Shown piece after piece: positions 1-13,383 of a stretch of DNA of 13,383 nt. Origin of the DNA: a virus (taxonomy: Duplodnaviria; Heunggongvirae; Uroviricota; Caudoviricetes); IMG/VR virus record IMGVR_UViG_2534681933_000013, positions 1 through 13,383 of that record; one strand, 5' to 3'. Each line of letters begins with the position of its first letter. Within the stretch, counting starts at the first letter, position 1. Under the pieces are notes generated by a model, which was given only the letters and a program-made list of their open reading frames with translations, did not search any database and had not been told where the DNA came from. A program made the position numbers and the translations under genes.

Positions 1-777
<777 letters not shown>

Positions 778-856
778 TTCGAACTCCTTAAATTTATTTG
801 AAGGCAATAAAAAAGTAGGATTTATCCGCAATGGAAGCAAGGCATTACAGGCTTAA

Positions 857-876
857 TTTAAATAACAAAATCCTAA
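857..876 (-). promoter_or_regulatory. GAD box (GadE/GadX-type activator site) upstream of gadA
   Basis: The minus strand reads TTAGGATTTTGTTATTTAAA, an exact match to the 20-bp gad box as I recall it. It lies about 80-100 bp upstream of the gadA ATG in an AT-rich region. Confidence 0.6.
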
Positions 877-944
877 GCAGAAAAATGATCTTTTATAATA
901 TAAACATTTAATATGATAATATTAAAAACAGACTTTATTATCGT

Positions 945-977
945 AATAAAAATCGCCCAAACATTCCTGTTCGGGCG
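945..977 (-). terminator. Intrinsic terminator downstream of yhjA
   Basis: Stem CGCCCAAACA (954-963), loop TTCC, stem TGTTCGGGCG (968-977), 9 of 10 pairs. On the minus-strand RNA it is followed by AUUUUUAUU, about 10 nt after the yhjA stop. Confidence 0.6.
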
Positions 978-987
978 ATCAAATTAA

Positions 988-2385
988 TTATTGTTTATCC
1001 TGCATATACGGCGTGTAAACCCCGTTCAGACTGTGCAGGAAAGCTACGATATCATCCACATCCTCCTGCGGCAGCTCTTTGCCTACCTGATAGCGCAACA
1101 TCAGTTTCACCGCCCCGTCCAGCGTCGGCACGTCACCGCGATGGAAGTACGGTGCCGTTAAAGCAACGTTACGTAAACCGGGTACTTTCTGACGCAATTT
1201 ATCACGCTCTTCTTTAGTCACATTCATACGACCAATATCCGCCGCCGTAATTTCCCCAAAGTTAAAGTCTTTTTTCAGCCCCAACGGTTCGAAGGAACGT
1301 CCGCCGAGAATAATTCCACCATGACAAGTTGCACATTTATTATCTTTAAATAATTGATAGCCTTTTTTCTGTTGCGCCGTCAGCGCATTTTCATCCCCAC
1401 GCAACCATTTATCAAATGGGGAATCCGGCGTAATTAATGTTTTCTCAAATTCAGCAATGGCATCAGTAATATTTTCGCCACTGAAACCTTGCGGATAGAC
1501 GTCGAGGAACTGCGCTTTAAGCTGCGGATCTTTTTCCAGCTTAGCAATAATTTCGTCCCAGGATTTTGACGCCATTTCAATCGGGTTCAACGGCGGTCCA
1601 CCAGCCTGATCCTGCAATGTTGCCGCACGACCATCCCAGAACTGCTCAACGTTAAATACTGAGTTAAATACCGTCGGCGCGTTAATCGGCCCAACTGCGC
1701 CACCAACACCAATCGATGTTTTTCTGCCATCGACGCCCCCCGCATTCAACGCATGGCAATGAGCGCATGAAATGGTGCTATCAGCCGATAAACGGGGATC
1801 GTGATACAGCGCAAAGCCCAACGCCACTTTTTGCGCATCGGTAGGCAGTTTTTGCGGGATGGGCTGCACCGGTTCATTGCGATGCTCCGGAGCAGTATCA
1901 TTGCTGGCGTAATATTCCGCGCGCTGTTTTGCAATCCAGGCCAGTATTTCCGCCCGCTCTTCATCACTCACCTTACCCGCCCAGTGTAGCGCGGTATAAC
2001 GCGTTGGCGGCATAGTTTCATACTGCATCACCCATTCAATCTTATTCAGATCGCTTTGCGAAACGGGTTTATCAGCCAGCAGAGCAGCACGCACGGCCTC
2101 GAGGTTAAAAGATTTATATCCAAGCTTAATGTCGTAATCCATCAACTGTTTCGCGCCAGGAATATAATAATAGGCGGGTAATTCTGCCGAAGGCGTGTGG
2201 CAATAGTCGCATCCTTTTTCGCGGAGAAAGCCTAAAACCTTATTATTTTCACTGACAGCAGATGCCTGAACATCGGCCTGTTTACTGCGTTTATTATCGT
2301 GGTACCACACATAACCAGATAACCCTAAATAGCAAATCGCGACGCCAGCCAGGCCGATCGCGGTAATACGTGAGACCATTTTCAT
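988..2385 (-). CDS. yhjA: Membrane-anchored tri-haem cytochrome c peroxidase (465 aa)
   Basis: Complete ORF with an N-terminal hydrophobic segment and three CxxCH haem motifs (CDYCH, CAHCH, CATCH). GAGGGA Shine-Dalgarno upstream of the ATG. Position between gadA and treF matches K-12. Confidence 0.9.
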   Translation of the reverse strand: MKMVSRITAIGLAGVAICYLGLSGYVWYHDNKRSKQADVQASAVSENNKVLGFLREKGCDYCHTPSAELPAYYYIPGAKQLMDYDIKLGYKSFNLEAVRAALLADKPVSQSDLNKIEWVMQYETMPPTRYTALHWAGKVSDEERAEILAWIAKQRAEYYASNDTAPEHRNEPVQPIPQKLPTDAQKVALGFALYHDPRLSADSTISCAHCHALNAGGVDGRKTSIGVGGAVGPINAPTVFNSVFNVEQFWDGRAATLQDQAGGPPLNPIEMASKSWDEIIAKLEKDPQLKAQFLDVYPQGFSGENITDAIAEFEKTLITPDSPFDKWLRGDENALTAQQKKGYQLFKDNKCATCHGGIILGGRSFEPLGLKKDFNFGEITAADIGRMNVTKEERDKLRQKVPGLRNVALTAPYFHRGDVPTLDGAVKLMLRYQVGKELPQEDVDDIVAFLHSLNGVYTPYMQDKQ

Positions 2386-2492
2386 TATTCTTCCCTCACG
2401 GTGGTGAGTTATTGTGACCCAGAAAATTTTCCAGAATGCTGCAAACGTCTCTGCGAGACAAAGCCATCATAAAAAACAGGGAGATACGCTTT

Positions 2493-2506
2493 TTGATAGG
2501 AATCAA
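2493..2506. promoter_or_regulatory. FNR/CRP-family box TTGAT-N4-ATCAA upstream of yhjA
   Basis: TTGATAGGAATCAA matches both FNR half-sites perfectly, centred about 114 bp upstream of the yhjA ATG. yhjA is known to be anaerobically induced via FNR. Confidence 0.55.
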
Positions 2507-2759
2507 TCAATTACATGAATATAAACTATCAATAAGATAGCCTGTGCCTATTACCCAGATCAGGAATGGCATATCATGATTGCGGCAAGAGCAGGATTGA
2601 ATGTTCTGAAAATGAAAAACAACACGAAATCTGTATTTTTATAAATTCCATTGATATTAGTGCGTTATATTTTTTGACAGGTTAATAAACGTGATCCACC
2701 GCACGCTTTGTCGCCCACCAGGCGGAGCGAATGACTACCCTTAAAGAAAAGCCCGATAA

Positions 2760-4439
<1,680 letters not shown>

Positions 4440-4442
4440 TAT

Positions 4443-4480
4443 TTTTACAGCCAGCCGCTAACTTCCTGCTGGCTGTAAAA
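4443..4480. terminator. Hairpin between convergent treF and yhjB, possible terminator
   Basis: Perfect 12-13 bp inverted repeat TTTTACAGCCAGC / GCTGGCTGTAAAA around a 12-nt loop, starting 4 bp after the treF stop. The flanking U-tract is weak, so terminator function is uncertain. Confidence 0.4.
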
Positions 4481-4489
4481 TTATCCTCT

Positions 4490-5092
4490 TCAGGAGGAGA
4501 TATTTAACATCATTGCCGCCTGGGTGCGATTTTTCACTTCCAGACGGCGATACAGGGATTCCAGATGCGCTTTTACCGTTCCGGTACTGATATTCAGCGC
4601 TCTGCCGATCTCCTTATTTGATTCGCCCGCCGCTAACATGGTTAAAATCTCCCGCTGGCGGGCGCTTAACGATTTGAGATCTTTAATGTCCTTTTCCGGC
4701 GTCGTCCGCCAGTCTCCAGGCAGAAACATCATCCCCATCGCCGCACTATTTACCGCCAACGCAAATGTCTCGACGGTTGAATCACGAGGCACAATGGCCA
4801 GCACATTAAAATGGATAACTTCCTGTAACCACCGTTTATTGCAGTCCGTCGCCGTAATTAACACCTTAACCTCAGGAAATTGCACCACGGTTTTTTGCAG
4901 CAACCAGTAGCAAAACTCACCATCCTGATCGCCATCGAGCATAACTAAGGCTTCAGGGTAACTTTCCAGCTTTTGCCATAACTCGTCTGCCTGACTGGCC
5001 CCCTGAATACTCACTCCTGGAATACGCTGCTGTAAACTGATTTTCATTCCATGAATAAATATTGACTGCCTGTCAAACATGACTATTTGCAT
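4490..5092 (-). CDS. yhjB: LuxR/FixJ-type HTH regulator with a degenerate receiver-like N-terminus (200 aa)
   Basis: Complete ORF with a C-terminal LuxR-type HTH (REILTMLAAGESNKEIGRALNISTGTVKAHLESLYRRL). Position and length match K-12 yhjB. Confidence 0.85.
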   Translation of the reverse strand: MQIVMFDRQSIFIHGMKISLQQRIPGVSIQGASQADELWQKLESYPEALVMLDGDQDGEFCYWLLQKTVVQFPEVKVLITATDCNKRWLQEVIHFNVLAIVPRDSTVETFALAVNSAAMGMMFLPGDWRTTPEKDIKDLKSLSARQREILTMLAAGESNKEIGRALNISTGTVKAHLESLYRRLEVKNRTQAAMMLNISS

Positions 5093-5611
5093 AACTGAAT
5101 CTCCACCTGAATACGTTAAAAAGACTTAAGTAGTGGAAGGGTATTACCCGCGAGAAAAAATAAGAATTCGCCATTTGGCGGTGGCCATTCTACAGAGATG
5201 GCGCGTAGAAAATAGTTACCGATATAAATAGTTACAGCTAAACGCCTGAAATTACATGTCGAGGGCACTATTTAAAACAATTTTGAGGATTTCCTTATAT
5301 TGGTGGTTAGTACGCATGCAATTAAAAATGAAATTCCGCGACCACAAGCCAAAATAACAAATGGCAATGAGACAAAAATAAGCACAAATAGCCAATATGT
5401 CCTCTATTCACTTTAAAGGGAATCGCTGAAAAATACGCTCTGTTTAAGGGGATTCACCTTTCTCAGAAAGCTATTCCGCCCTTTTCCTGCTGAGAAATCG
5501 CCACATTCGTCATGACAACATTGTGAAACCCGGCATTAGATGTTAGAAAAAATAATAAACAATGCGATATGCGCGTTACTGTTTCGCTGTGAACAACAAT
5601 CGGTCAAAGAA

Positions 5612-6592
5612 ATGGATAAAATTCACGCAATGCAGTTGTTCATCAAAGTCGCGGAGCTGGAAAGTTTTTCCCGCGCAGCGGATTTCTTTGCTTTGCCAAA
5701 AGGAAGTGTTTCGCGCCAGATACAGGCACTGGAACATCAACTTGGCACCCAGCTTCTCCAGCGCACCACGCGACGGGTCAAACTCACGCCAGAAGGCATG
5801 ACCTATTATCAACGAGCAAAAGATGTGTTGAGTAATCTCAACGAACTGGACGGTCTGTTTCAGCAGGATGCCACCAGTATCAGCGGTAAATTACGCATCG
5901 ACATCCCGCCAGGAATCGCAAAAAGCCTGTTACTGCCGCACCTGTCGGAATTTCTCTATCAGCATCCGGGAATTGAGCTGGAACTGAGTAGCCATGACCG
6001 TCCGGTAGATATTCTTCATGATGGTTTTGATTGCGTGATACGCACTGGCGCGTTACCGGAAGATGGCGTTATCGCCCGTCCCCTCGGCAAACTGACCATG
6101 GTCAACTGTGCCAGTCCGCACTATCTGACGCGCTTTGGTTATCCGCAAAACCCCGACGATCTCACTTCACACGCAATAGTGCGTTATACACCGCACCTGG
6201 GTGTACATCCGTTAGGTTTTGAGGTTGCCAGCGTTAATGGCGTCCAGTGGTTTAAGTCTGGCGGCATGTTGACGGTAAACAGTAGCGAAAACTATCTCGC
6301 CGCCGGTCTTGCCGGTCTGGGGATTATTCAGATCCCGCGCATTGCCGTGCGCGAAGCCCTGCGTGCCGGGCGGCTTATTGAAGTGTTGCCAGGCTACCGT
6401 GCCGAGCCGCTCTCCCTTTCGCTGGTTTATCCGCAGCGTCGGGAGCTTTCCCGGCGTGTAAACCTGTTTATTGATGCGCCGCGCGATAAATGCACTCTAT
6501 CTTGTGCGATAAATGGCATCCACGCGGCGTTTCATTATTTGAAAAAGAATTACATTTCAGGTTGCGTTATGACAGTCCCAACAGGGTGGTAG
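5612..6592 (+). CDS. yhjC: LysR-family transcriptional regulator whose last ~40 codons read into prophage DNA (chimeric C-terminus)
   Basis: N-terminal LysR HTH (MDKIHAMQLFIKVAELESFSRAADFFALPKGSVSRQ). I prefer the ATG at 5612 to the ORF-track start at 5540 because it gives the canonical LysR N-terminus. The ORF is 326 codons versus about 299 expected, and the tail from about 6472 has Mu-end character. Confidence 0.8.
   Translation: MDKIHAMQLFIKVAELESFSRAADFFALPKGSVSRQIQALEHQLGTQLLQRTTRRVKLTPEGMTYYQRAKDVLSNLNELDGLFQQDATSISGKLRIDIPPGIAKSLLLPHLSEFLYQHPGIELELSSHDRPVDILHDGFDCVIRTGALPEDGVIARPLGKLTMVNCASPHYLTRFGYPQNPDDLTSHAIVRYTPHLGVHPLGFEVASVNGVQWFKSGGMLTVNSSENYLAAGLAGLGIIQIPRIAVREALRAGRLIEVLPGYRAEPLSLSLVYPQRRELSRRVNLFIDAPRDKCTLSCAINGIHAAFHYLKKNYISGCVMTVPTGW
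6472..6540. repeat. Prophage terminal region with Mu R1/R2-like transposase-binding repeats
   Basis: TGATGCGCCGCGCGATAAATGC matches 17 of 22 positions of the Mu right end as I recall it (TGAAGCGGCGCACGAAAAACGC). CGATAAATG occurs twice, at 6484-6492 and 6507-6515, 23 bp apart. Confidence 0.55.
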
Positions 6593-7122
6593 CGGTAGAT
6601 CGTTGACAGTCCAATATCATAGATAATTGCCAGCCGCTTTCTGTCATACCCTTTCTGGAGCAATCTTGCGATCTGCTCATGCTGCTCCTTCGTCAGTTTC
6701 GGGCGACGTCCTCCAACTCTCCCTTGTGCTCGCGCAGCAGCCAGTCCTGCCAGCGTGCGCTCAACTATCAGTTCACGCTCCATTTCTGCCAGTGCACCCA
6801 TCATATGAAAAAAGAACCTTCCCATCGGAGTGCTGGTATCGATTGAATCCGTCAGACTGCGAAAATTGACACCTTTTGCGCGTAGCTCTTCTGTGAGAGC
6901 AATGAGGTGTTTCATTCTTCTACCCAACCGATCCAGCTTCCAGACCACCAATGTATCCCCTCTTTTAAGGCACTTTAAAGCGCGTTTCAGGCCTGGTCGT
7001 TCCGACTTGGTTCCGCTCATTTTGTCCTCAAAAATCTGTTCACATCCTGCGCACATTAATGCATTGCGTTGCAAATCTGTGTTTTGGTCATTTGTTGACA
7101 CACGTATGTAGCCAATCAGCAT
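6550..7122 (-). CDS. Serine DNA invertase of the Hin/Gin/Pin/Cin family (190 aa)
   Basis: Translation from the ATG at 7120-7122 reads MLIGYIRVSTNDQNTDLQRNAL...DRLGRRMKHL...SLTDSIDTSTPMGRFFFHMMGALAEMERELIVERTLAGLAAARAQGR, closely resembling Hin and Gin with the catalytic Ser in RVSTNDQ. The 292-aa ORF-track extension upstream is antisense read-through of a fibre cassette. Confidence 0.9.
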   Translation of the reverse strand: MLIGYIRVSTNDQNTDLQRNALMCAGCEQIFEDKMSGTKSERPGLKRALKCLKRGDTLVVWKLDRLGRRMKHLIALTEELRAKGVNFRSLTDSIDTSTPMGRFFFHMMGALAEMERELIVERTLAGLAAARAQGRVGGRRPKLTKEQHEQIARLLQKGYDRKRLAIIYDIGLSTIYRYHPVGTVITQPEM

Positions 7123-7176
7123 TAAAAATACTCCCTTTTGAGTGGTTAAAGTACTGAGATAATGTGGGGAGGATTT

Positions 7177-7202
7177 GAGAGATAAACGTTGGTTTAGGGG
7201 AA
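7177..7202 (+). promoter_or_regulatory. hix/gix-like 26-bp recombination site 1
   Basis: GAGAGATAAACG-TT-GGTTTAGGGGAA. The right half-site is shared with sites 2 and 3, and the site sits at the 5' edge of the conserved fibre crossover region. Confidence 0.55.
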
Positions 7203-7700
7203 GACTCGGCGCTGCCCGTTGGTGTGCCCGTTCCATGGCCCTCAGCCACACCGCCAACGGGGTGGCTGAAATGCAATGGTGCAGCATTTTCTTCTGAAAT
7301 GTATCCCAAACTGGCAAAAGCCTACCCACCAATAAATTACCGGATTTACGGGGAGAATTTATTCGCGGTTGGGATGATGGGCGCGGGGTGGATGCTGGCC
7401 GCGCTTTGCTTAATTGGCAGCCACACACAATTTTGGATCATGCACACTATATGGAATTATGGACCGGGGATGGACTTGCCGCGGGAAGTACACGGGAAGG
7501 AGTAACCCCTGGAATACTGGCTACATACGGGGACGGGGGAATAGTTAAAACAGACGTAACCCGGTTTTAAATGTGCCTTCCTCACTACGTAGCCATTTAG
7601 CTCTCGTAATGTAAAACGGTTTGGTGAAATTAGTGGAAATGTAGGTACAGAAACTCGCCCTCGCAACGTTGCATTTAATTACATCGTAAGAGCCGCATGA
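7203..7700 (+). pseudogene. Silent, degenerate alternative tail-fibre C-terminal cassette 1
   Basis: Begins with the crossover-region peptide (ALPVGVPVPWPSATPPTGWLKCNGAAFSSEMYPKLAKAYP). A 1-nt deficit in a C-run near 7326-7330 shifts the frame, a stop follows at 7568-7570 and several stops at 7590-7627. The conserved C-terminus GNVGTETRPRNVAFNYIVRAA is still encoded at 7635-7697. Confidence 0.6.
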
Positions 7701-7719
7701 AAACGTTGGTTTAGGAGAA
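7694..7719 (+). promoter_or_regulatory. hix/gix-like 26-bp recombination site 2
   Basis: CGCATGAAAACG-TT-GGTTTAGGAGAA, in the same orientation as site 1. It overlaps the stop codon of cassette 1 and immediately precedes cassette 2. Confidence 0.55.
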
Positions 7720-8187
7720 GGTTCTGCACTGCCCGTTGGCGTGCCTGTTCCATGGCCCTTAGCAACACCACCAACGGGCTGGCTGAAATGTAACGGTGCA
7801 GCATTTTCTTCTGAAATGTACCCCAAACTGGCAAAAGCCTACCCCACCAATAAATTACCGGATTTACGCGGAGAATTTATCCGTGGCTGGGATGATGGGC
7901 GAGGAATTGATGCGGCACGCGCTTTATTGAGCATTCAAAGCGGGATGTTGGAAAAACATCGCCATATTGTTGTAGCTAACGATGGATATGACACAAAAGA
8001 TGAATGGGAGTTGGCTACGATTTTCAAAAAAACATATACACAAGGCAGGGGGCTTGATGCCACAAATACAGGAGGGAGTTTGATTCCATCACCAACGCTT
8101 CATTCACGAGGAAGTATTGGTAACACAGGTGGTAGTGAAACCCGCCCCCGCAATATTGCATTTAACTATATCGTGAGGGCGGCTTAG
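7720..8187 (+). CDS. Silent alternative tail-fibre C-terminal cassette 2, promoterless gene segment with an intact frame
   Basis: Open frame from the crossover site through GSALPVGVPVPWPLATPPTGWLKCNGAAFSSEMYPKLAKAYPTNKLPDLRGEFIRGWDDGRG to the family C-terminus ...ETRPRNIAFNYIVRAA. It has no start context of its own and would be expressed only after inversion. Confidence 0.6.
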   Translation, partial: GSALPVGVPVPWPLATPPTGWLKCNGAAFSSEMYPKLAKAYPTNKLPDLRGEFIRGWDDGRGIDAARALLSIQSGMLEKHRHIVVANDGYDTKDEWELATIFKKTYTQGRGLDATNTGGSLIPSPTLHSRGSIGNTGGSETRPRNIAFNYIVRAA

Positions 8188-8193
8188 TTATAT

Positions 8194-8805
8194 TCAACTG
8201 GCTGATGCCAGTGGTATTTCCGGCAAGTTGATATCTGGTGCCATGTTTATATCCATTGCGTTCAGCGCGTCTATATAATCCAGCACGGCATTAAGCCGGG
8301 TGGTTTCTGCCTGCGTCAACTTCCGCCCGGCCCGCAACTTCAACTGAATCAGACTTATGGAATCCATTGCCGCATCAGCCAGTGACTGGCGCTTGGTTTC
8401 TGCCGCTTCTACTGCGGCACGATGTTGTACCTCAGTATCTGTCACCCATTTTTCACCATCCCATTTATCGTATGGTGTTAACGGGGCGATAGTGGTTGTA
8501 TTTTTCGGGTAGTCACCCAGCGCCGTGATTTCTTCGGTGTTTCCCGTGTCAGTGCTATAGACGGTTTCACCACGATGGTCTGGCGCATACTCCCATGAAT
8601 TTAAATCCTCCGAACGGCGAATAGCATAGCCAGATTTATGTGCGCCTGGGGCATCTAAACAGGAATTAGCCGGAATACCAACACCCACAGCAAGATATTC
8701 AGTTGATTCGGAAATATATTCCCGTGTCTCACCATCATAGTTATAAACGACGATGTTTCCTGCCTGTACGGCAATAAGGTCATCATTTAATATCGCGTTA
8801 TTCAT
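8194..8805 (-). CDS. Tail-fibre assembly chaperone (Mu U / lambda Tfa-like, 203 aa)
   Basis: Complete ORF immediately downstream of the fibre gene with a TAATG stop/start overlap, in the position occupied by tfa genes in Mu, P1, e14 and lambda. Call is by position and size; I could not confirm a family motif. Confidence 0.75.
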   Translation of the reverse strand: MNNAILNDDLIAVQAGNIVVYNYDGETREYISESTEYLAVGVGIPANSCLDAPGAHKSGYAIRRSEDLNSWEYAPDHRGETVYSTDTGNTEEITALGDYPKNTTTIAPLTPYDKWDGEKWVTDTEVQHRAAVEAAETKRQSLADAAMDSISLIQLKLRAGRKLTQAETTRLNAVLDYIDALNAMDINMAPDINLPEIPLASAS

Positions 8806-9253
8806 TATGCGGTTCTCACAATATAATTGAAGGCAATATTGCGTGGGCGGTTTTCATTCCCATCTGAGGATTCCGTTCTGTATTGACTGGTAAATCTACC
8901 GTTAATTGCACCTTGCCGGACGGCATTATCTGTCGACAACAGACTATCCCCTCTTTTGTCATTTGGCACCAGTACCGTGTTATCCCACGCATCCCATGAC
9001 CGAATATTATGATAATGACTTCCTGTTAACCACCCCTGCATGCTTAAGATGCCCCTTCCGGCATCCACCCCGCGCCCATCATCCCAGCCACGGATAAATT
9101 CTCCGCGTAAATCCGGTAATTTATTGTTGGGTAGGCCTTTGCCAGATTTGGGTACATTTCAGAAGAAAATGCTGCACCGTTACATTTCAGCCAGCCCGTT
9201 GGTGGTGTTGCTAAGGGCCATGGAACAGGCACGCCAACGGGCAGTGCAGAACC

Positions 9254-9279
9254 TTCTCCTAAACCAAGGTAATTGAGGA
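9254..9279 (-). promoter_or_regulatory. hix/gix-like 26-bp recombination site 3, within the expressed fibre gene
   Basis: Plus strand TTCTCCTAAACC-AA-GGTAATTGAGGA matches about 19 of 26 positions of hixL as I recall it (TTCTTGAAAACCAAGGTTTTTGATAA). It is inverted relative to sites 1 and 2 and lies at the constant/variable boundary. Confidence 0.6.
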
Positions 9280-9439
9280 CTTCTTTTATACTGCCCATAG
9301 CGATAATAGCGCGACCAATAGCTGTAAGGGTTGTCAGTGCTGCGCGGTCTGCTCCGGTAAAATAAGGCAACCGATCTGCTGCAGTGGCAAGTCCTGCCAG
9401 AGCAGTGAGCGTGGCATCTGCCGGTTGTTTTCCGTTTGC

Positions 9440-9990
9440 CAGATCGTATGCAGCCTTGACCGCTTTCGGTGTGGCGGCCAGTATTTCAGACGTGCTGTTG
9501 ATGTCACTGCTCAATTGTACGGTGCCTTTTGCCGTCAGCGAGGCAGCAGGCACTCCCGTTATCTGACTCCACGGGTGAGTGTGGCTGACGGGCGCCTTGC
9601 CGGCTGCAAGGTCGTATGCAGCCTTGACCGCCTTCGGCGTGGCAGCCTCAGTTTCTGATTGACTGTCCGTGGCGCTGCTCAGTTGTACGGTGCCTTTTGC
9701 CGTCAGCGAGGCAGCAGGGACTCCCGTTATCTGACTCCACGGGTGAGTGTGGCTGACGGGCGCCTTGCCGGCTGCAAGGTCGTATGCAGCCTTGACCGCC
9801 TTCGGCGTGGCAGCCTCAGTTTCTGATTGACTGTCCGTGGCGCTGCTCAGTTGTACGGTGCCTTTTGCCGTCAGCGAGGCAGCAGGCACTCCCGTTATCT
9901 GACTCCACGGGTGAGTATGGCTGACGGGGGCCTTGCCGGCAGCCAGGTCATATGCAGCCTTGACGGCCTTTGGTGTGGCGGCCAGCGTTT
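9440..9990 (-). repeat. 168-bp in-frame tandem repeat array inside the tail-fibre gene
   Basis: The string CTGACTCC recurs at 9563, 9731 and 9899. Units 9563-9730 and 9731-9898 are near-identical; the flanking units are partial or diverged. Each unit encodes a 56-aa module. Confidence 0.8.
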
Positions 9991-10252
9991 CAGAGGTGCT
10001 AGTTGGTGGCACTGCTCAGTTGGGTGAACCCCTTAGCTGTCAGTGTCGCGTCCGGGTGGTTACGGGAACGTACGTGTTCAGCCAGTGACTGTGCGGCTTC
10101 CTCCGTTTTTTTCTTCAGCCATTTCGTCCTGTTTGCCAGTTGCCGGGGGGCTCGATTTGATATCCCGTCTGCACCACCCAGAACCGGATCTGATGTCTCC
10201 AGTTGATAGATATTTTCTTCCCACTTTTCTGTTTCATTCAGGTTTCCCATAA

Positions 10253-10831
10253 TCAACTGCTCCCGTGGTTATAACTGCCATCATGGATGGCGGTATTGTT
10301 ATAGCGAATGGCCACAGACTGATACTCCAGGCTGGCCAGATGGCAGCGGGCCGGTGCAAATGCAGCCAGCGTCTGACGCAGCATCGCGGCCTGATCGTTA
10401 GTAATGGGCTGTTTCAGAATAACGCGATAAACTGCCCAGGCGGCTGCATCTCCATGAACAAACAGTCCGTTATAGCTGCGATTGCCGTCGTAACTGAGAC
10501 GACCTGTGCCTTCAATCAGATCCACTTCACCAAAGCCAAAACGGCGGATAACTTCCCGGATTGACCACGGCGTCCCTTTATACCGGTGCAGTTCGATGGC
10601 TGCTTTTATAAGCATGCGGCGAACATCGTCCGATTCCGCCAGCTCCCAGCCATCGCCAGACAGTGAGAACTGCTCGCCCAGCCATGGCAGCGCGGAACTG
10701 TCGACGATATCGACGAGAAAGACCATCAGTACGCTCAGGTCGATGTTATCCAGCCGTCCTGCCAGTCTTCCCAGCGTCCTGAGACTGATATCACCCTCAA
10801 GCGGTGGCGGGAGTTGTAATGGCTCAGTCAT
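10253..10831 (-). CDS. Baseplate/tail protein, P2 gpI / Mu gp48-like (192 aa)
   Basis: Complete ORF immediately upstream of the fibre gene, with overlapping stop and start codons on both sides. Call is by size and position in the baseplate operon. Confidence 0.7.
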   Translation of the reverse strand: MTEPLQLPPPLEGDISLRTLGRLAGRLDNIDLSVLMVFLVDIVDSSALPWLGEQFSLSGDGWELAESDDVRRMLIKAAIELHRYKGTPWSIREVIRRFGFGEVDLIEGTGRLSYDGNRSYNGLFVHGDAAAWAVYRVILKQPITNDQAAMLRQTLAAFAPARCHLASLEYQSVAIRYNNTAIHDGSYNHGSS

Positions 10832-11927
10832 CAGACACTCCAGTCATGTTAAGAGTGATTGCCGTACAGTTTGCCCATTCGTTTTCTGCCACCACCCGCA
10901 GTGCCGGTGTCACCAGTTCAACCTGGTACACCCCGGAAACGGACAATGCACTGATAATCTGGCTGGGGACAATATCGCGCCCCAGCGTGGCGGCACGTGA
11001 TGCCACCCAGTTCTGTATGGCGCTGTTAGCGGCATCTTTTACAGACCTGGCATCCTGATCACGATAGATCGTAATCTTGGCTTCAATGGTGTAATCCACC
11101 TTCACTGGTGTTTTAGCCCGCACTGTATCAGTGAGTGGCCTGACTTTCTCATCAGAGCAGAAACTCTCTACCAGCGTGAGAACACCGCCGTCCGGCAGAC
11201 CGGTACTGAGCAGCGGATACAGATCTACGGTCCCGGGAACCGGGGAAAGCACAGCAACATCGACAATGTTGGGATGGGCCTGCATGGCATGAAAGCGGTA
11301 TGCGCCACGGCTTCCGGCATTGGTGAATGACTCCGGGGCCAGCCTGATACGCTCCCGGAGCCTGTCATCGTCTTCCTGTTCTGAACCGCCGGAACTGGCC
11401 GTCAGATTGCTCACCAGCAGGTCGACGTTATCAATCTCATCGAGTAACTGACTGACCTGCGCAGGTTGCCAGCCGTTACCAGCGGTACCGGGTTCGGTAC
11501 AGGTGGACGTGACATTGACCAGCAGCAATCCGGCCTTCAGTACCACATCTGTATCGGTGGCAAAAATAACGCTGTCGGAAGCGCTGACGCGGGTGCCTGC
11601 CGGGATCAGCACATCAATGGCCAGTGCCTCATCTACGGAGAACTGGAGCGTGGTAGTGGCAGGCTGCGCGGCAAGACGGTATACACCGACCAGTTCACCG
11701 AGGTAATCAATCATCGGCTCACGGGCAAAGGCGACCAGATTCTGCTTTGCTGCCTCCTGTACCGCAACCCTGACCAGCATTTCGCGATAGGCCCACAGAT
11801 CAATCAGCAGACGTTCTGCCTGTGCCGGGTACAGCGTTTTGCCGGTATCCGCTTCATACTTCGCAATCATTTCTGCCGTGATTTTGTCGGCATCGCGTTC
11901 AATAAAATCGGGTTCTGTCAGCGCCAT
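10824..11927 (-). CDS. Baseplate protein, P2 gpJ / Mu gp47-like (367 aa)
   Basis: Complete ORF between the gp25-like and gpI-like genes, overlapping both neighbours by 8-10 nt. Size and position fit the Baseplate_J family. Confidence 0.75.
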   Translation of the reverse strand: MALTEPDFIERDADKITAEMIAKYEADTGKTLYPAQAERLLIDLWAYREMLVRVAVQEAAKQNLVAFAREPMIDYLGELVGVYRLAAQPATTTLQFSVDEALAIDVLIPAGTRVSASDSVIFATDTDVVLKAGLLLVNVTSTCTEPGTAGNGWQPAQVSQLLDEIDNVDLLVSNLTASSGGSEQEDDDRLRERIRLAPESFTNAGSRGAYRFHAMQAHPNIVDVAVLSPVPGTVDLYPLLSTGLPDGGVLTLVESFCSDEKVRPLTDTVRAKTPVKVDYTIEAKITIYRDQDARSVKDAANSAIQNWVASRAATLGRDIVPSQIISALSVSGVYQVELVTPALRVVAENEWANCTAITLNMTGVSDD

Positions 11928-12265
11928 AGCAGCTCCTGAGTCCGGGTCTGTCCGTCTGAGCCTTTCCAGCTCACCCGGAGCGTAAGATGTTCGCCGTCGA
12001 CGGCGGGTTTAACTGACATAAGCTGGCAGCGGGGCTCCCAGCGCCGGATGGCATCGACGGATTCGCGCACCACATGCGGAATGGCCCGGTCTACAGGCCA
12101 GTCGATATAAAGATGCAGATTGCTGCCGAACTCCGGGCGATGCGGGTCGCTGCCGCGGGGAGTCCGCAGGATAATTTGAATCGCCTGCCGGATATCATCC
12201 AGCCCCCGGACAATTTCGCCGGGAGCCTGCAGGGTCGGTTGCCAGAATACTGAGGTTGTTTTCAT
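11918..12265 (-). CDS. Baseplate wedge protein, gp25/gpW-like (115 aa)
   Basis: Contains the gp25-family core IQIILRTPRGSDPHRPEFGSNL. The 115-aa size matches P2 gpW and Mu gp46. Confidence 0.8.
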   Translation of the reverse strand: MKTTSVFWQPTLQAPGEIVRGLDDIRQAIQIILRTPRGSDPHRPEFGSNLHLYIDWPVDRAIPHVVRESVDAIRRWEPRCQLMSVKPAVDGEHLTLRVSWKGSDGQTRTQELLWR

Positions 12266-12283
12266 GGGGGCAGTATTGCCCCC
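12266..12283 (-). other. Stable hairpin abutting the start codon of the gp25-like gene
   Basis: GGGGGCA-GTAT-TGCCCCC, a perfect 7-bp GC-rich stem. On the mRNA it ends directly at the AUG and covers the likely Shine-Dalgarno position. Confidence 0.5.
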
Positions 12284-12319
12284 GTGCGGGAACGCTGATA
12301 TTAAAGGCGTTTAAAAAGC

Positions 12320-12916
12320 TCAGTGGGAGTGGTGGCTGGAGTTTTCGCCATCAGACAACATACTGCCCGTGGCATGGGCATTCCCTTTAATCTCGATATT
12401 GCCATGGATGGTCGCGGTAACACCTTCACCACCAGAACCCGCCATGCCTCCTTCGTAAATCAGCTTACCCCTGACACGCAGATCTCCGGTAAGTTCGGTT
12501 TCCGGTGCGTCAATCGTGGCTTTCTGTGTTTTCAATACCACATCAGCACCACACTCAATGACAATATGCTCAATGCCGCCCCGGATGGTCAGAGTGTGCG
12601 TCTTCCGGTTGTAGCTGTACTCTGCACCATCAGCAAACCGGGTTCCCCGGATATTTTTGTCACTGAACGGTGGTTTATCGACGTCTGAATACACCGCGCC
12701 CAGAATAACACCATCCTCGCCGTTGGCATCGAGCAGTACCTCAACCTGCTCCCCCACGTCAGGGAGCCAGTAATCTTTGTTATCCTGGGTATTGCGCTGC
12801 AGCACGTTAAGCCAGTTTGTGCGCAGGTTATCGCATTCAGGCAGACGAACGCGGGCCTGAACCCTGTCGGCATCAACGGCACTGACCGTACCGACCTGAC
12901 GAGTGACACCAGTCAT
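12320..12916 (-). CDS. Baseplate spike/assembly protein, gpV / Mu gp45-like (198 aa)
   Basis: Complete ORF with a gpV-like N-terminal segment (WLPDVGEQVEVLL) and a glycine-rich C-terminal part. Its start overlaps the upstream gene's stop (ATGA). Confidence 0.75.
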   Translation of the reverse strand: MTGVTRQVGTVSAVDADRVQARVRLPECDNLRTNWLNVLQRNTQDNKDYWLPDVGEQVEVLLDANGEDGVILGAVYSDVDKPPFSDKNIRGTRFADGAEYSYNRKTHTLTIRGGIEHIVIECGADVVLKTQKATIDAPETELTGDLRVRGKLIYEGGMAGSGGEGVTATIHGNIEIKGNAHATGSMLSDGENSSHHSH

Positions 12917-13383
12917 TTTTTCTTCTCCTTAATCACCGTCGATGTACTGCCATCCGGGTGATAAACCGTGAGTTTCTGAGTTTTTTGTTTTTTCCCTCTT
13001 GTGACTGGCCCCCGTGCCACTTCCAGCTCTGTGGTGTAGCCGCTGTTACGGTCAAACGCATGGCGGGCAGTGGTTATGAGCCATGGCCCGGATAACTGCC
13101 CAAAACCCACCAGTTCAATTTTGTTGCCTGCTGTCAGTTGAGGTGTTCCCGTCAGCGTCAGGGAGCCGTTCTGCTGGTATTCGTTATGTCTGGCCAGTGC
13201 TGAATCCGCTTTAATCCGGGCACTGTCCGGGTCGCTGACGCGGCTGTTAACTTTAAGTGAGTCAGCGCTGGTAACCTTACCACCTTTGAGCTTTTTGTCG
13301 CTTTCACGGGTACCACCATCAGCTTCGTAGACGATCAGTTTTTTACTGCTGCTTTTCTGGTGTTTTACCTTTGCAGATTTATA
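12913..13383 (-). CDS. Phage baseplate/tail protein, C-terminal 156 codons; possibly the gpD / Mu gp44 hub, by synteny only
   Basis: The minus-strand frame is open from the window end to the stop at 12913-12915 (ends ...LTVYHPDGSTSTVIKEKKK). The ORF track shows only its last 65 codons from an internal GTG. Product assignment is positional. Confidence 0.45.
   Translation of the reverse strand, partial: YKSAKVKHQKSSSKKLIVYEADGGTRESDKKLKGGKVTSADSLKVNSRVSDPDSARIKADSALARHNEYQQNGSLTLTGTPQLTAGNKIELVGFGQLSGPWLITTARHAFDRNSGYTTELEVARGPVTRGKKQKTQKLTVYHPDGSTSTVIKEKKK

Follow-up and report, generated by a model that had tools for sequence, protein, structure and literature searches.

Din-type tail-fibre shufflons with three or more sites have been known since the Min multiple-inversion system of p15B, which was reportedly the work of Sandmeier et al. 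in 1990 and 1991, and a further example carries little weight as a discovery. Exchange by Din-family invertases takes place at a 2-bp core. Here we analysed a stretch of viral DNA of 13,383 nucleotides (IMG/VR record IMGVR_UViG_2534681933_000013, positions 1 to 13,383; hereafter the window). We consider it roughly 85% probable that its tail-fibre locus represents a multiple DNA-inversion system of the Din family (Pin/Gin/Cin/Min-type) located at the right end of a Mu-like prophage, a switch that has probably become a relic at the protein level in this copy.

The comparison with p15B was based on the site table in PMC3241671 and on a P1-like plasmid that was examined directly. Judged from its sequence, the architecture of the window is the already known p15B Min-type multiple-inversion layout. 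The p15B and P1-like phage-plasmid systems and the window have in common a Din-family serine invertase, more than two 26-bp sites with an AA core, tandem cassettes whose stop codon is located in the outer half-site of the following cassette (CGTTTTTATGCC type), a site of the GGTAATCAAGAA type next to the constant fibre part, and far fewer tfa (tail-fibre assembly) genes than cassettes. However, six sites are found in p15B and nine in the P1-like plasmid but three in the window, and a second tip, gp53-like and accompanied by a separate tfa of 138 aa, is present in the p15B and P1-like systems.

The P2-like prophage of E2348/69 has the same layout as the window, with an invertase, two tandem cassettes without tfa, a single tfa, and a fibre gene that carries the third cassette as a fusion. 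The C2, C3 and tfa types are the same, with a DNA identity of about 88-90%; the invertase is 85% identical, and the three sites are homologous. However, the backbone is P2-like there and Mu-like transposable in the window, cassette 1 is of another type, and the fibre gene is intact in E2348/69 but frameshifted in the window. Four isomers and three C-termini were demonstrated for the E2348/69 module by sequencing and PCR (Genome Med; PMC4272514).

Systems with two sites differ in layout. Mu G/Gin and P1 C/Cin share with the window the recombinase family (72-74% identity), sites of 12+2+12 bp, the fusion of a constant Sc to an alternative Sv part, and the position at the phage right end beside the fibre gene. 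The window has three sites, cassettes of about 155 codons and one tfa, whereas in Mu and P1 the sites number two, as do the large cassettes, and a tfa is co-oriented in every orientation because there are two of these genes (U and U'). The P segment/Pin system of e14 in E. coli K-12 is likewise a Din invertase system in a defective prophage, and its inversion still operates in the cryptic element (PMC4272514), but it has two sites and two tfa genes. The sequence-only reading had set the locus apart from the classic two-site Mu G or P1 C segment and had proposed a comparison of site architecture with p15B Min and P1/Mu/e14. This comparison gave a p15B Min-type match; the locus does differ from the two-site Mu G and P1 C segments, but its layout is that of p15B Min, and E2348/69 has the same one (PMC4272514).

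Two further systems are similar in concept. The FR-phi shufflon of an Enterobacter prophage produces three C-termini with a Gin-type recombinase, and its isoforms occur at 50:25:25 (PMC13418256), the ratio predicted by the four-state model described below; it belongs to another phage and host and is likened to the window by scheme, not by sequence. R64-type (Rci) shufflons also swap adhesin C-terminal segments by multiple inversions. However, they use a tyrosine recombinase and 19-bp sfx sites and act on pilV, and membership of the window in this group was ruled out, as its recombinase is a serine resolvase/invertase.

The locus lies at the right end of a Mu-like prophage

The first 6471 nt of the window are host flank with 100% identity to several O55:H7/O157:H7 chromosomes, and this identity ends at 6471. 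The right end of the prophage follows at 6472-6549; it begins with TGATGCGCCGCGCGATAAATGC and is inserted in the host gene rcdB (yhjC). In five related viral contigs and in the cS51a and DLI.5a prophages, the match to the window begins at 6471/6472, and the host site is different in each. The phage end lies in rcdB in the window and just downstream of torZ in cS51a; in DLI.5a it is found where a truncated solute:sodium symporter gene by yidJ breaks off. The cS51a prophage carries genes for a DDE transposase, an ExeA/MuB-like protein, Gam and Mor. Unrelated insertion sites, a defined end and the transposase, MuB, Gam and Mor genes of cS51a are all features of a Mu-like transposable phage, to which we assign the element on sequence grounds; the host is assigned likewise to an O55:H7/O157:H7-lineage E. 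coli. The left end of the prophage and any target duplication are located outside the window. Shigella pinD or a defective Mu was rejected as the identity of the window, the flank being 100% O55:H7/O157:H7 E. coli.

The invertase gene (6550-7122, minus strand) is intact and encodes a Din-family serine DNA invertase (Pin/Gin/Min-like) of 190 aa with Resolvase (PF00239, E=8e-51) and HTH_7 (PF02796, E=1e-12) domains. The motif RVSTNDQ is conserved and the catalytic Ser9 is present. The protein shares 74% identity with Gin, 72% with Cin, and 84-85% with the invertases of E2348/69 and the P1-like plasmid. All 711 aligned positions of the region 6480-7190 are the same in cS51a (711/711), one and the same invertase protein is annotated in cS51a and DLI.5a, and in five IMG/VR contigs the best tblastn segment is 100% identical. 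Within the gene, positions 7033-7104 (minus strand) align with the enhancer annotated at nt 19-90 of cin in the P1 record, with 54 of 72 positions the same as in cin (75%) and 55 of 72 as in gin (76%), compared with 63-68% in the rest of the gene. Because this region is also coding, and coding constraint confounds the comparison, the similarity is only suggestive of a recombinational (Fis) enhancer.

Three crossover sites of the Din type

The common half-site noticed in the sequence-only reading, GGTTTAGGAGAA, was found in exact copies at 7708-7719 (plus strand) and 9254-9265 (minus strand), and with one mismatch, as GGTTTAGGGGAA, at 7191-7202 (plus strand). A search for this half-site with up to two mismatches gave four matches against 0.69 expected, and none of 200 shuffled sequences reached four. 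Site s1 (7177-7202, plus strand; GAGAGATAAACG TT GGTTTAGGGGAA; core 7189-7190) adjoins the invertase gene, whose start lies 55 bp away. Site s2 (7694-7719, plus strand; CGCATGAAAACG TT GGTTTAGGAGAA; core 7706-7707) is internal and a direct repeat of s1. Site s3 (9254-9279, minus strand; core 9266-9267) adjoins the constant fibre part and is inverted relative to s1 and s2. This orientation had been recognized before, and the cores lie at the break points then proposed (7190, 7707 and 9266). Written with the conserved half first, s1 reads TTCCCCTAAACC AA CGTTTATCTCTC and s2 reads TTCTCCTAAACC AA CGTTTTCATGCG, the reverse complements of 7177-7202 and 7694-7719, respectively; s3 reads TTCTCCTAAACC AA GGTAATTGAGGA on the plus strand of 9254-9279. 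The AA core is thus common to all three potential partner sites, whereas the core in Mu is GA.

Compared with published Din-family sites, the three sites agree at 21-23 of 26 positions, while the next best 26-mer in the whole window reaches 18. The best counts were 22/26 for s1 with p15B mix sites, 23/26 for s2 with p15B mixMr''N', and 21/26 for s3 with p15B mixQ''R' and cixR. The pix sites of e14 also resemble s1-s3, with pixR (CGTTTATGAAAA) closely similar to s1 (CGTTTATCTCTC), and the outer half of s1 is the same in cS51a and DLI.5a. Dyad symmetry amounts to 5-7 of 12 positions and is concentrated in the core-proximal AAAC(C/G), as in pix and mix sites. Symmetry and conservation against known Din sites, which had been put forward as a check, both speak for genuine crossover sites. 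With three sites, and cassettes separated by a directly repeated internal site, the arrangement is that of a Min-type multiple-inversion system; the stop codon of cassette 1 even lies inside the outer half of s2, a design found in tandem Min cassettes.

Homology extends beyond the sites for 213 nt at 89% between the s1 and s3 sides, for 145 nt at 97% plus another 116 nt at 79% between s2 and s3, and for 144 nt at 90% between s1 and s2. A conserved crossover region of about 130 bp had been proposed here. The homology is present, but it is longer than that, and it encodes the conserved phage tail Collar domain (PF07484) rather than being a crossover region.

Cassettes, tfa and the constant fibre part

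Each of the three cassettes is about 155 codons long, and all share the Collar domain and a common C-terminal motif (...RPRNIAFNYIVRAA). Cassette 1 (C1; 7191-7700, plus strand) is a silent C-terminal fibre cassette and a pseudogene in this copy. Compared with the intact 157-aa cassette of DLI.5a, it lacks one nucleotide at 7325 and carries four single-nucleotide insertions (7557, 7565, 7590 and 7596), and these changes cause its internal stops; its best match among complete E. coli genomes is 96.8%, with none higher. Cassette 2 (C2; 7708-8187, plus strand) is also silent but intact, with 159 codons ending in ...ETRPRNIAFNYIVRAA*. In annotation, the "phage tail protein" fragments at 7191-8187 should be read as alternative fibre tips and not as separate genes.

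The sole tfa gene (8194-8805, minus strand) is intact and encodes 203 aa with a Caudo_TAP domain (E=1e-30). Its start overlaps the stop codon of cassette 3 (ATAATG). Cassette 3 (C3; 8805-9265, minus strand) is joined to the constant part but is frameshifted, as one nucleotide present in cS51a and DLI.5a is missing near 9122, and the frame entering from the constant part stops at 9044. The constant N-terminal part of the tail-fibre gene (9266-10252, minus strand) contains Phage_fiber_2 repeats and a premature TAG, which arises from an additional base at 10001. This base is absent from all complete E. coli genomes, the best match being 99.8%. Three tandem 168-bp (56-aa) fibre-shaft repeats (9429-9994, minus strand; repeat family D1) are present, compared with four in cS51a; besides this missing repeat and the extra base, all 994 aligned positions of the constant part are the same in cS51a (994/994).

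These features agree with the earlier description of a multi-site Din-type tail-fibre switch with two tandem cassettes on the same strand and one tfa, the sites matching at 21-23 of 26 positions and the Caudo_TAP gene being single. Cassette 3 had also been described as expressed. This does not hold for the sequence as it stands, in which the fibre gene is inactivated by the premature TAG and the deletion near 9122.

Inversion isomers

We propose that the serine invertase pairs s3 with the oppositely oriented s1 or s2, cuts at the common AA core, and lets the DNA between the paired sites invert. Because a 26-bp site lies at the 5' edge of each receptor-binding cassette, inversion would exchange the C-terminus that is read in frame from the constant part. 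No more than four isomers would be reachable with three sites. V1, the state of the window, has constant part-C3-tfa with C2 and C1 silent; V2 would have constant part-C2, with tfa and C3 antisense; V3 would have constant part-C1-C2, again with tfa and C3 antisense; and V4 would have constant part-C1-C3-tfa, with C2 antisense. The fibre could end in any of three tips, and two of the four states would express C1; the function may be host-range bet-hedging of the phage.

The isomers were found among relatives. The near-identical cS51a prophage is in the V2 state, with cassette 2 joined in frame to the same constant part and tfa convergent; a synthetic junction of constant part and C2 matched it in one piece, at 98.7% over 838 nt, inside an intact fibre ORF of 543 aa. 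Two isomers of one strain are seen in the assemblies of E2348/69, V1 in CP059840.2 and V3 (constant part-C1) in NC_011601. The IMG/VR relatives cover all four topologies: V1 (L015 and L029), V2 (L022), V3 (L030 and L032) and V4 (L014). In EPEC E2348/69, Goldberg et al. (2014; PMC4272514) reported two inversions that overlap and, with confirmation by PCR, four variants existing side by side, and the ends of these inversions (NC_011601, 1891695-1893703 and 1892127-1893703) coincide with the three homologous sites located here. An assembly of such a locus captures one of four isomers that exist together, and it is often there that contigs end.

It had been suggested that inversion between s3 and s2 or s1 places a new C-terminus in frame while turning tfa antisense, and both products are seen, with C2 in cS51a and C1 in the E2348/69 reference assembly. 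The antisense position of tfa applies to the single inversions, but in the fourth isomer tfa returns to sense behind cassette 1. In two of the four isomers, tfa and the fibre point the same way, and cassette 2 is the only cassette that is never co-oriented with tfa. We infer that the window copy can still flip, because its invertase and sites are intact and its invertase-region DNA is the same as that of a relative in another isomer.

State of the window copy

As sequenced, the coding regions of the switch module are all damaged except cassette 2, tfa and the invertase. Because of the premature stop and the frameshifts in cassettes 3 and 1, a full-length fibre is impossible in any orientation of this sequence, suggesting that the switch is probably a protein-level relic in this copy. 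It is a minority possibility, though one to be taken seriously, that the prophage is fully functional, that the frameshifts (10001, about 9122, 7325 and 7557-7596) are sequencing or assembly errors, and that cassette 3 is expressed, the locus being an active host-range switch with three tips. All seven indels are confined to the window sequence and absent from the best complete-genome matches, four single-base insertions within 40 nt of cassette 1 are odd for natural decay, and the neighbouring baseplate genes are intact, as are tfa, cassette 2 and the invertase. The private frameshifts could therefore be errors. However, base-calling quality looks high from the identities of the host flank (6471 nt at 100%), the invertase region and the constant part with cS51a. 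That the 6.5-kb flank, the invertase region and the remaining constant part are error-free against relatives favours real mutations. Furthermore, the DLI.5a and E-1246 copies also have degraded fibre genes, which indicates that the locus decays in lysogens.

One tfa gene for several cassettes

In a survey of locus architecture by an IMG/VR scan, one tfa with 2-9 cassettes was found in 19 of 80 related viral loci, and among these 19 the sense and antisense orientations of tfa were about equally frequent; a prior genome-contig scan with the invertase had given five loci, mostly at contig ends. A tfa-like ORF came directly behind every C3-type cassette surveyed (15/15), and 14 of these ORFs were of about 200 aa. 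Elsewhere, 5 of 10 C1-type and 7 of 27 C2-type cassettes have their own downstream tfa. The copies without tfa in the window could accordingly be deletion products, and cassettes 1 and 2 might be dead cargo from a larger two-tfa segment, never productive, leaving effectively a one-tip system; that cassette 1 is a pseudogene here would fit. We regard this as improbable. The C2-type homologues differ across elements with Ka/Ks of 0.03-0.11 and Ks up to 0.73, pointing to strong purifying selection, intact fusions of the constant part to C2 and to C1 occur in otherwise intact prophages, and single-tfa arrays recur in the 19 loci.

Returning to a productive multiple-inversion system, the supply of Tfa differs from that in Mu S and P1 S: a co-oriented tfa does not accompany each orientation, and there is one Caudo_TAP gene (8194-8805). 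The Tfa proteins behind C1- or C2-type cassettes elsewhere are 75-80% identical to the window Tfa, which weakens the idea, prompted by the 15/15 C3-type cassettes with a tfa-like ORF behind them, of a tfa dedicated to the C3-type tip only. Most likely, to judge from these similarities, one conserved-family Tfa is able to serve all cassettes, which share the ...RPRNIAFNYIVRAA C-terminus. A promoter/terminator scan of 6450-10400 gave two weak promoter-like matches against 4.7 expected and revealed neither an orientation-independent tfa promoter nor an inward promoter from the invertase side; a TGnGATAAT-like element noticed by eye at about 7155-7165 failed the scan. We tentatively raise the possibility, which is somewhat doubtful, that in the widespread arrays of many cassettes with one tfa the supply of Tfa does not depend on fibre orientation: tips of the C1 and C2 types might fold without Tfa in cis, or Tfa might act in trans on ...RPRNIAFNYIVRAA although its gene is antisense to late transcription. 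The trans-acting source may be one conserved Tfa or the Tfa of another resident prophage. If this were true, chaperone dependence would be cassette-specific, and the growth of arrays would be explained by capture of bare tips. How a tip is chaperoned while the only tfa is antisense is a family-wide question, not one specific to the window, and bears on host-range engineering of phages and tailocins.

Host use of fibre fragments and homologous recombination

A decaying module might also have been taken over by the host, with a chimeric fibre fragment made by inversion acting at the cell surface, for example by blocking the adsorption of other phages. PinQ/StfE2 of e14 in E. coli K-12 is a reported case of such a surface-acting fragment (PMC12529663), and the invertase, cassette 2 and tfa of the window are intact while the fibre N-terminus is broken. 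However, this is very improbable here: the premature stop lies upstream of all cassettes, so that none is joined to a translated N-terminus, a cassette-only product would have no detectable start codon or, by the scan of 6450-10400, promoter, and the frameshifts are private and recent-looking.

RecA-dependent homologous recombination between the 145-213-bp inverted repeats, instead of site-specific exchange at the 26-bp sites, is hardly credible: although the repeats are long and 89-97% identical, and comparison of the isomers places the exchange no more precisely than between the core and a point about 36 nt into the repeat, this interval always abuts the outer boundary of the repeat, the position of the Din site, an intact Din invertase adjoins, the sites match known crossover sites with a common AA core, the isomers co-exist at high frequency in clonal cultures (PMC4272514), and deletion of gin locks the state of the comparable three-cassette FR-phi locus (PMC13418256).

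Recombination sites and layout of the switch

The sequence-only reading had placed three sites with a shared half-site in this stretch, and the half-site GGTTTAGGAGAA was found at each of them, with one mismatch in site 1. With up to two mismatches allowed, 4 matches were obtained against 0.69 expected, which is far above chance. Written with the conserved half first, the 26-bp sites are TTCCCCTAAACC AA CGTTTATCTCTC (site 1, 7177-7202), TTCTCCTAAACC AA CGTTTTCATGCG (site 2, 7694-7719) and TTCTCCTAAACC AA GGTAATTGAGGA (site 3, 9254-9279). When they are set against the Din-family sites published in PMC3241671 (Table 3), 21-23 of 26 positions agree, the next best 26-mer of the window reaching 18, and their closest published counterparts are the p15B Min sites. 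The conserved regions reported after the sites do exist; they extend over 145-213 nt instead of the proposed 130 bp, with 89-97% identity, and code for the Collar domain that opens each cassette. A gix-like sequence with an AC core, TTCCTGTTAACC AC CCCTGCATGCTT, lies inside cassette 3 (9020-9045, plus strand) and differs from the gix half-site TTCCTGTAAACC at a single position. It encodes GWLTGS and is kept in all C3-type loci examined (the window, DLI.5a, cS51a, E-1246, E2348/69 and locus L002); it may be a quasi-site or have arisen by chance.

The sites adjoin an intact serine invertase gene (6550-7122, minus strand) encoding 190 aa with Resolvase and HTH_7 domains. The protein shares 74% identity with Gin and 72% with Cin, and 84-85% with its counterparts in the P2-like prophage of E2348/69 and in a P1-like plasmid. 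A 1268-bp contig labelled Moraxella osloensis (CAXORL010000041.1) encodes an invertase 100% identical to that of the window; this probably reflects a contaminated assembly and not a Moraxella gene. Then follow the fibre C-terminal cassettes 1 (C1, 7191-7700, plus) and 2 (C2, 7708-8187, plus, intact), the intact tail-fibre assembly gene tfa (8194-8805, minus; Caudo_TAP), cassette 3 (C3, 8805-9265, minus) and the constant N-terminal part of the fibre gene (9266-10252, minus), with the baseplate genes I, J, W and V further inward. The constant part contains three tandem 168-bp shaft repeats (56 aa, Phage_fiber_2; 9429-9994), against four in the cS51a gene, which is identical in other respects; therefore, shaft length differs between copies by whole repeats.

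The locus conforms to the Din family in the type of recombinase, in the design of the sites with their identical cores and inverted orientation, and in their position beside the recombinase gene. For the enhancer, comparison with the one annotated in cin gave 75% identity. An R64-type shufflon was rejected, because that type uses a tyrosine recombinase and the window encodes a serine invertase. The layout had been set apart from the classic two-site segments. It does differ from Mu G and P1 C, in both of which two sites and two tfa genes accompany large cassettes. The multi-site arrangement is shared with the Min type. The proposed mechanism was right; the three-site switch is of an already known kind, not novel, and a fourth isomer and the inactivated fibre gene had been overlooked.

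Inversion isomers in relatives

The predicted post-inversion junctions were constructed and searched against complete E. coli genomes. The junction of the constant part with C2 was found in strain cS51a as a single piece, with 98.7% identity across all 838 nt. The order there is invertase / C1(+) / C3(+) tfa(+) / C2-constant part(-), with an intact fibre ORF of 543 aa, and this arrangement is the exact product of inversion between sites 3 and 2. The junction of the invertase side with C3 was present in 38 genomes, among them the E2348/69 reference assembly NC_011601, which reads invertase / C3(+) tfa(+) / C2(-) C1-constant part(-). A later E2348/69 assembly, CP059840.2, reads invertase / C1(+) C2(+) / tfa(-) C3-constant part(-). 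Therefore, one strain has been assembled as two isomers that are one inversion between sites 3 and 1 apart; the internal site is flipped between them as expected, and the exchange interval adjoins the 26-bp sites. In E2348/69, three inverted repeats with overlapping large and small inversions have been described, giving four co-existing, PCR-confirmed variants and three alternative C-termini, and the reported inversion coordinates in NC_011601 (1891695-1893703 and 1892127-1893703; Goldberg et al. 2014, PMC4272514) match the positions of all three sites as mapped here. In Enterobacter phage FR-phi, also studied by experiment, three C-termini occur at about 50:25:25, and deletion of gin locks the locus (PMC13418256).

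When the window (6480-10260) was aligned with cS51a, every aligned position agreed in the invertase region (711/711) and in the constant part (994/994), C3, C2 and tfa were only 96-98% identical, and C1 differed in type (82.6% aligned identity, many indels). From this mosaic pattern it appears that prophages have swapped the invertible segment separately from the DNA on either side of it.

Proposed switching scheme

Productive recombination in the Din family occurs only between oppositely oriented sites. Since, in addition, the 3' end of C3 is physically joined to tfa, the reachable states would be V1-V4. In V1, the state of the window, the constant part would be followed by C3 and tfa, with C2 and C1 silent. 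V2 would join the constant part to C2, with tfa, C3 and C1 antisense; V3 would read constant part-C1-C2, with tfa and C3 antisense; and V4 would read constant part-C1-C3-tfa, with C2 antisense. These states would be connected as a cycle, V1-V2-V4-V3-V1, and C1 would be expressed in two of the four, in line with the FR-phi ratio. Single inversions from the present state would leave tfa antisense (V2 and V3), as had been pointed out; tfa would be sense again in V4, behind C1, and C2 would be co-oriented with tfa in none of the four states. Among 80 IMG/VR invertase relatives, V1 was found in contigs L015 and L029, V2 in L022, V3 in L030 and L032, and V4 in L014. Two-cassette versions of the module with one tfa (invertase / C(+) / tfa(-) C-constant part) occur in contigs L016 and L018 and in several E. 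coli matches; these may have arisen by deletion between the direct repeats, sites 1 and 2.

A single tfa alongside several cassettes

The single tfa had been listed among the differences from the classic two-site segments. It is not peculiar to the window: one tfa accompanies 2-9 Collar-type cassettes in 19 of the 80 related loci. Of these 19, 10 have tfa in the sense direction and 9 in the antisense direction (13 and 11, respectively, once the reference loci, including the window, are added). A nine-site P1-like plasmid carries eight Collar-type cassettes and one tfa of the window type, as well as a gp53-like tip of another kind, which has a 138-aa tfa to itself. All Collar-type cassettes terminate in ...RPRN(I/V)AFNYIVRA(A/T).

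In our survey, a tfa-like ORF followed the C3-type cassette in 15/15 cases (about 200 aa in 14), and in other elements 7/27 C2-type and 5/10 C1-type cassettes had a tfa of their own. The Tfa proteins found after C1- and C2-type cassettes elsewhere are 75-80% identical to the window Tfa over the whole length. Strong purifying selection acts on the C2-type cassette (Ka/Ks 0.03-0.11, Ks up to 0.73), which indicates that tfa-less cassettes are put to productive use in at least part of the family. On the simplest interpretation, a single Tfa of this conserved family can serve all cassettes. Mu Tfa binds the distal fibre and remains on the virion (published work summarised in PMC9608196). A promoter for tfa in the antisense states was looked for and none was found. 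While tfa is antisense, Tfa may be supplied by other resident prophages, or the tip may instead fold independently of Tfa; tip chaperoning in these states is a question for the whole family, not for the window alone.

Inactivated fibre coding

C3 had been described as the expressed cassette. However, an additional base at 10001 introduces a TAG behind '...SSATN' in the constant part, which otherwise equals cS51a at 994/994 aligned positions, and C3 itself has a 1-nt deletion near 9122. Compared with the intact DLI.5a cassette, C1 carries one deletion (a C at 7325) and four separate single-T insertions within 40 nt (7557-7596). The indels in all three parts are private to the window sequence, and a full-length fibre cannot be made from this copy as sequenced. 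DNA flipping by the switch as sequenced probably continues, since neither the invertase nor the sites are damaged and the DNA of the invertase region equals that of a relative in another isomer. The insertion cluster at 7557-7596 is unusual for natural decay and might stem from an error in the sequence at this spot or from a recombinant patch. In DLI.5a (L001, 10104-10214) and E-1246 (L005, 5246-6865), the related copies likewise have fibre genes that are truncated or in fragments, so the fibre locus decays repeatedly in lysogens.

Prophage end and host flank

Positions 1-6471 are host chromosome (gadA, ccp, treF, yhjB and rcdB/yhjC), with 100% identity to E. coli O55:H7 and O157:H7 genomes without the prophage insertion. 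Identity to these genomes ends inside rcdB, and phage DNA begins at 6472 with TGATGCGCCGCGCGATAAATGC... An identical phage end lies in DLI.5a where a truncated solute:sodium symporter gene breaks off, beside yidJ, and in cS51a immediately downstream of torZ; in five IMG/VR contigs, the match likewise starts at the phage end. The complete cS51a prophage (about 37.6 kb) encodes a DDE transposase, a MuB-like ATPase, Gam and Mor. Because the phage end occurs at differing host positions and the cS51a copy carries these genes, the element is a Mu-like transposable prophage, of which the window holds the right end. In the window (6440-6560), this end, with two CGATAAATG repeats, splits the LysR-family gene rcdB (yhjC) at 6471/6472, and an apparent 350-aa ORF (5540-6592) is a host-phage fusion.
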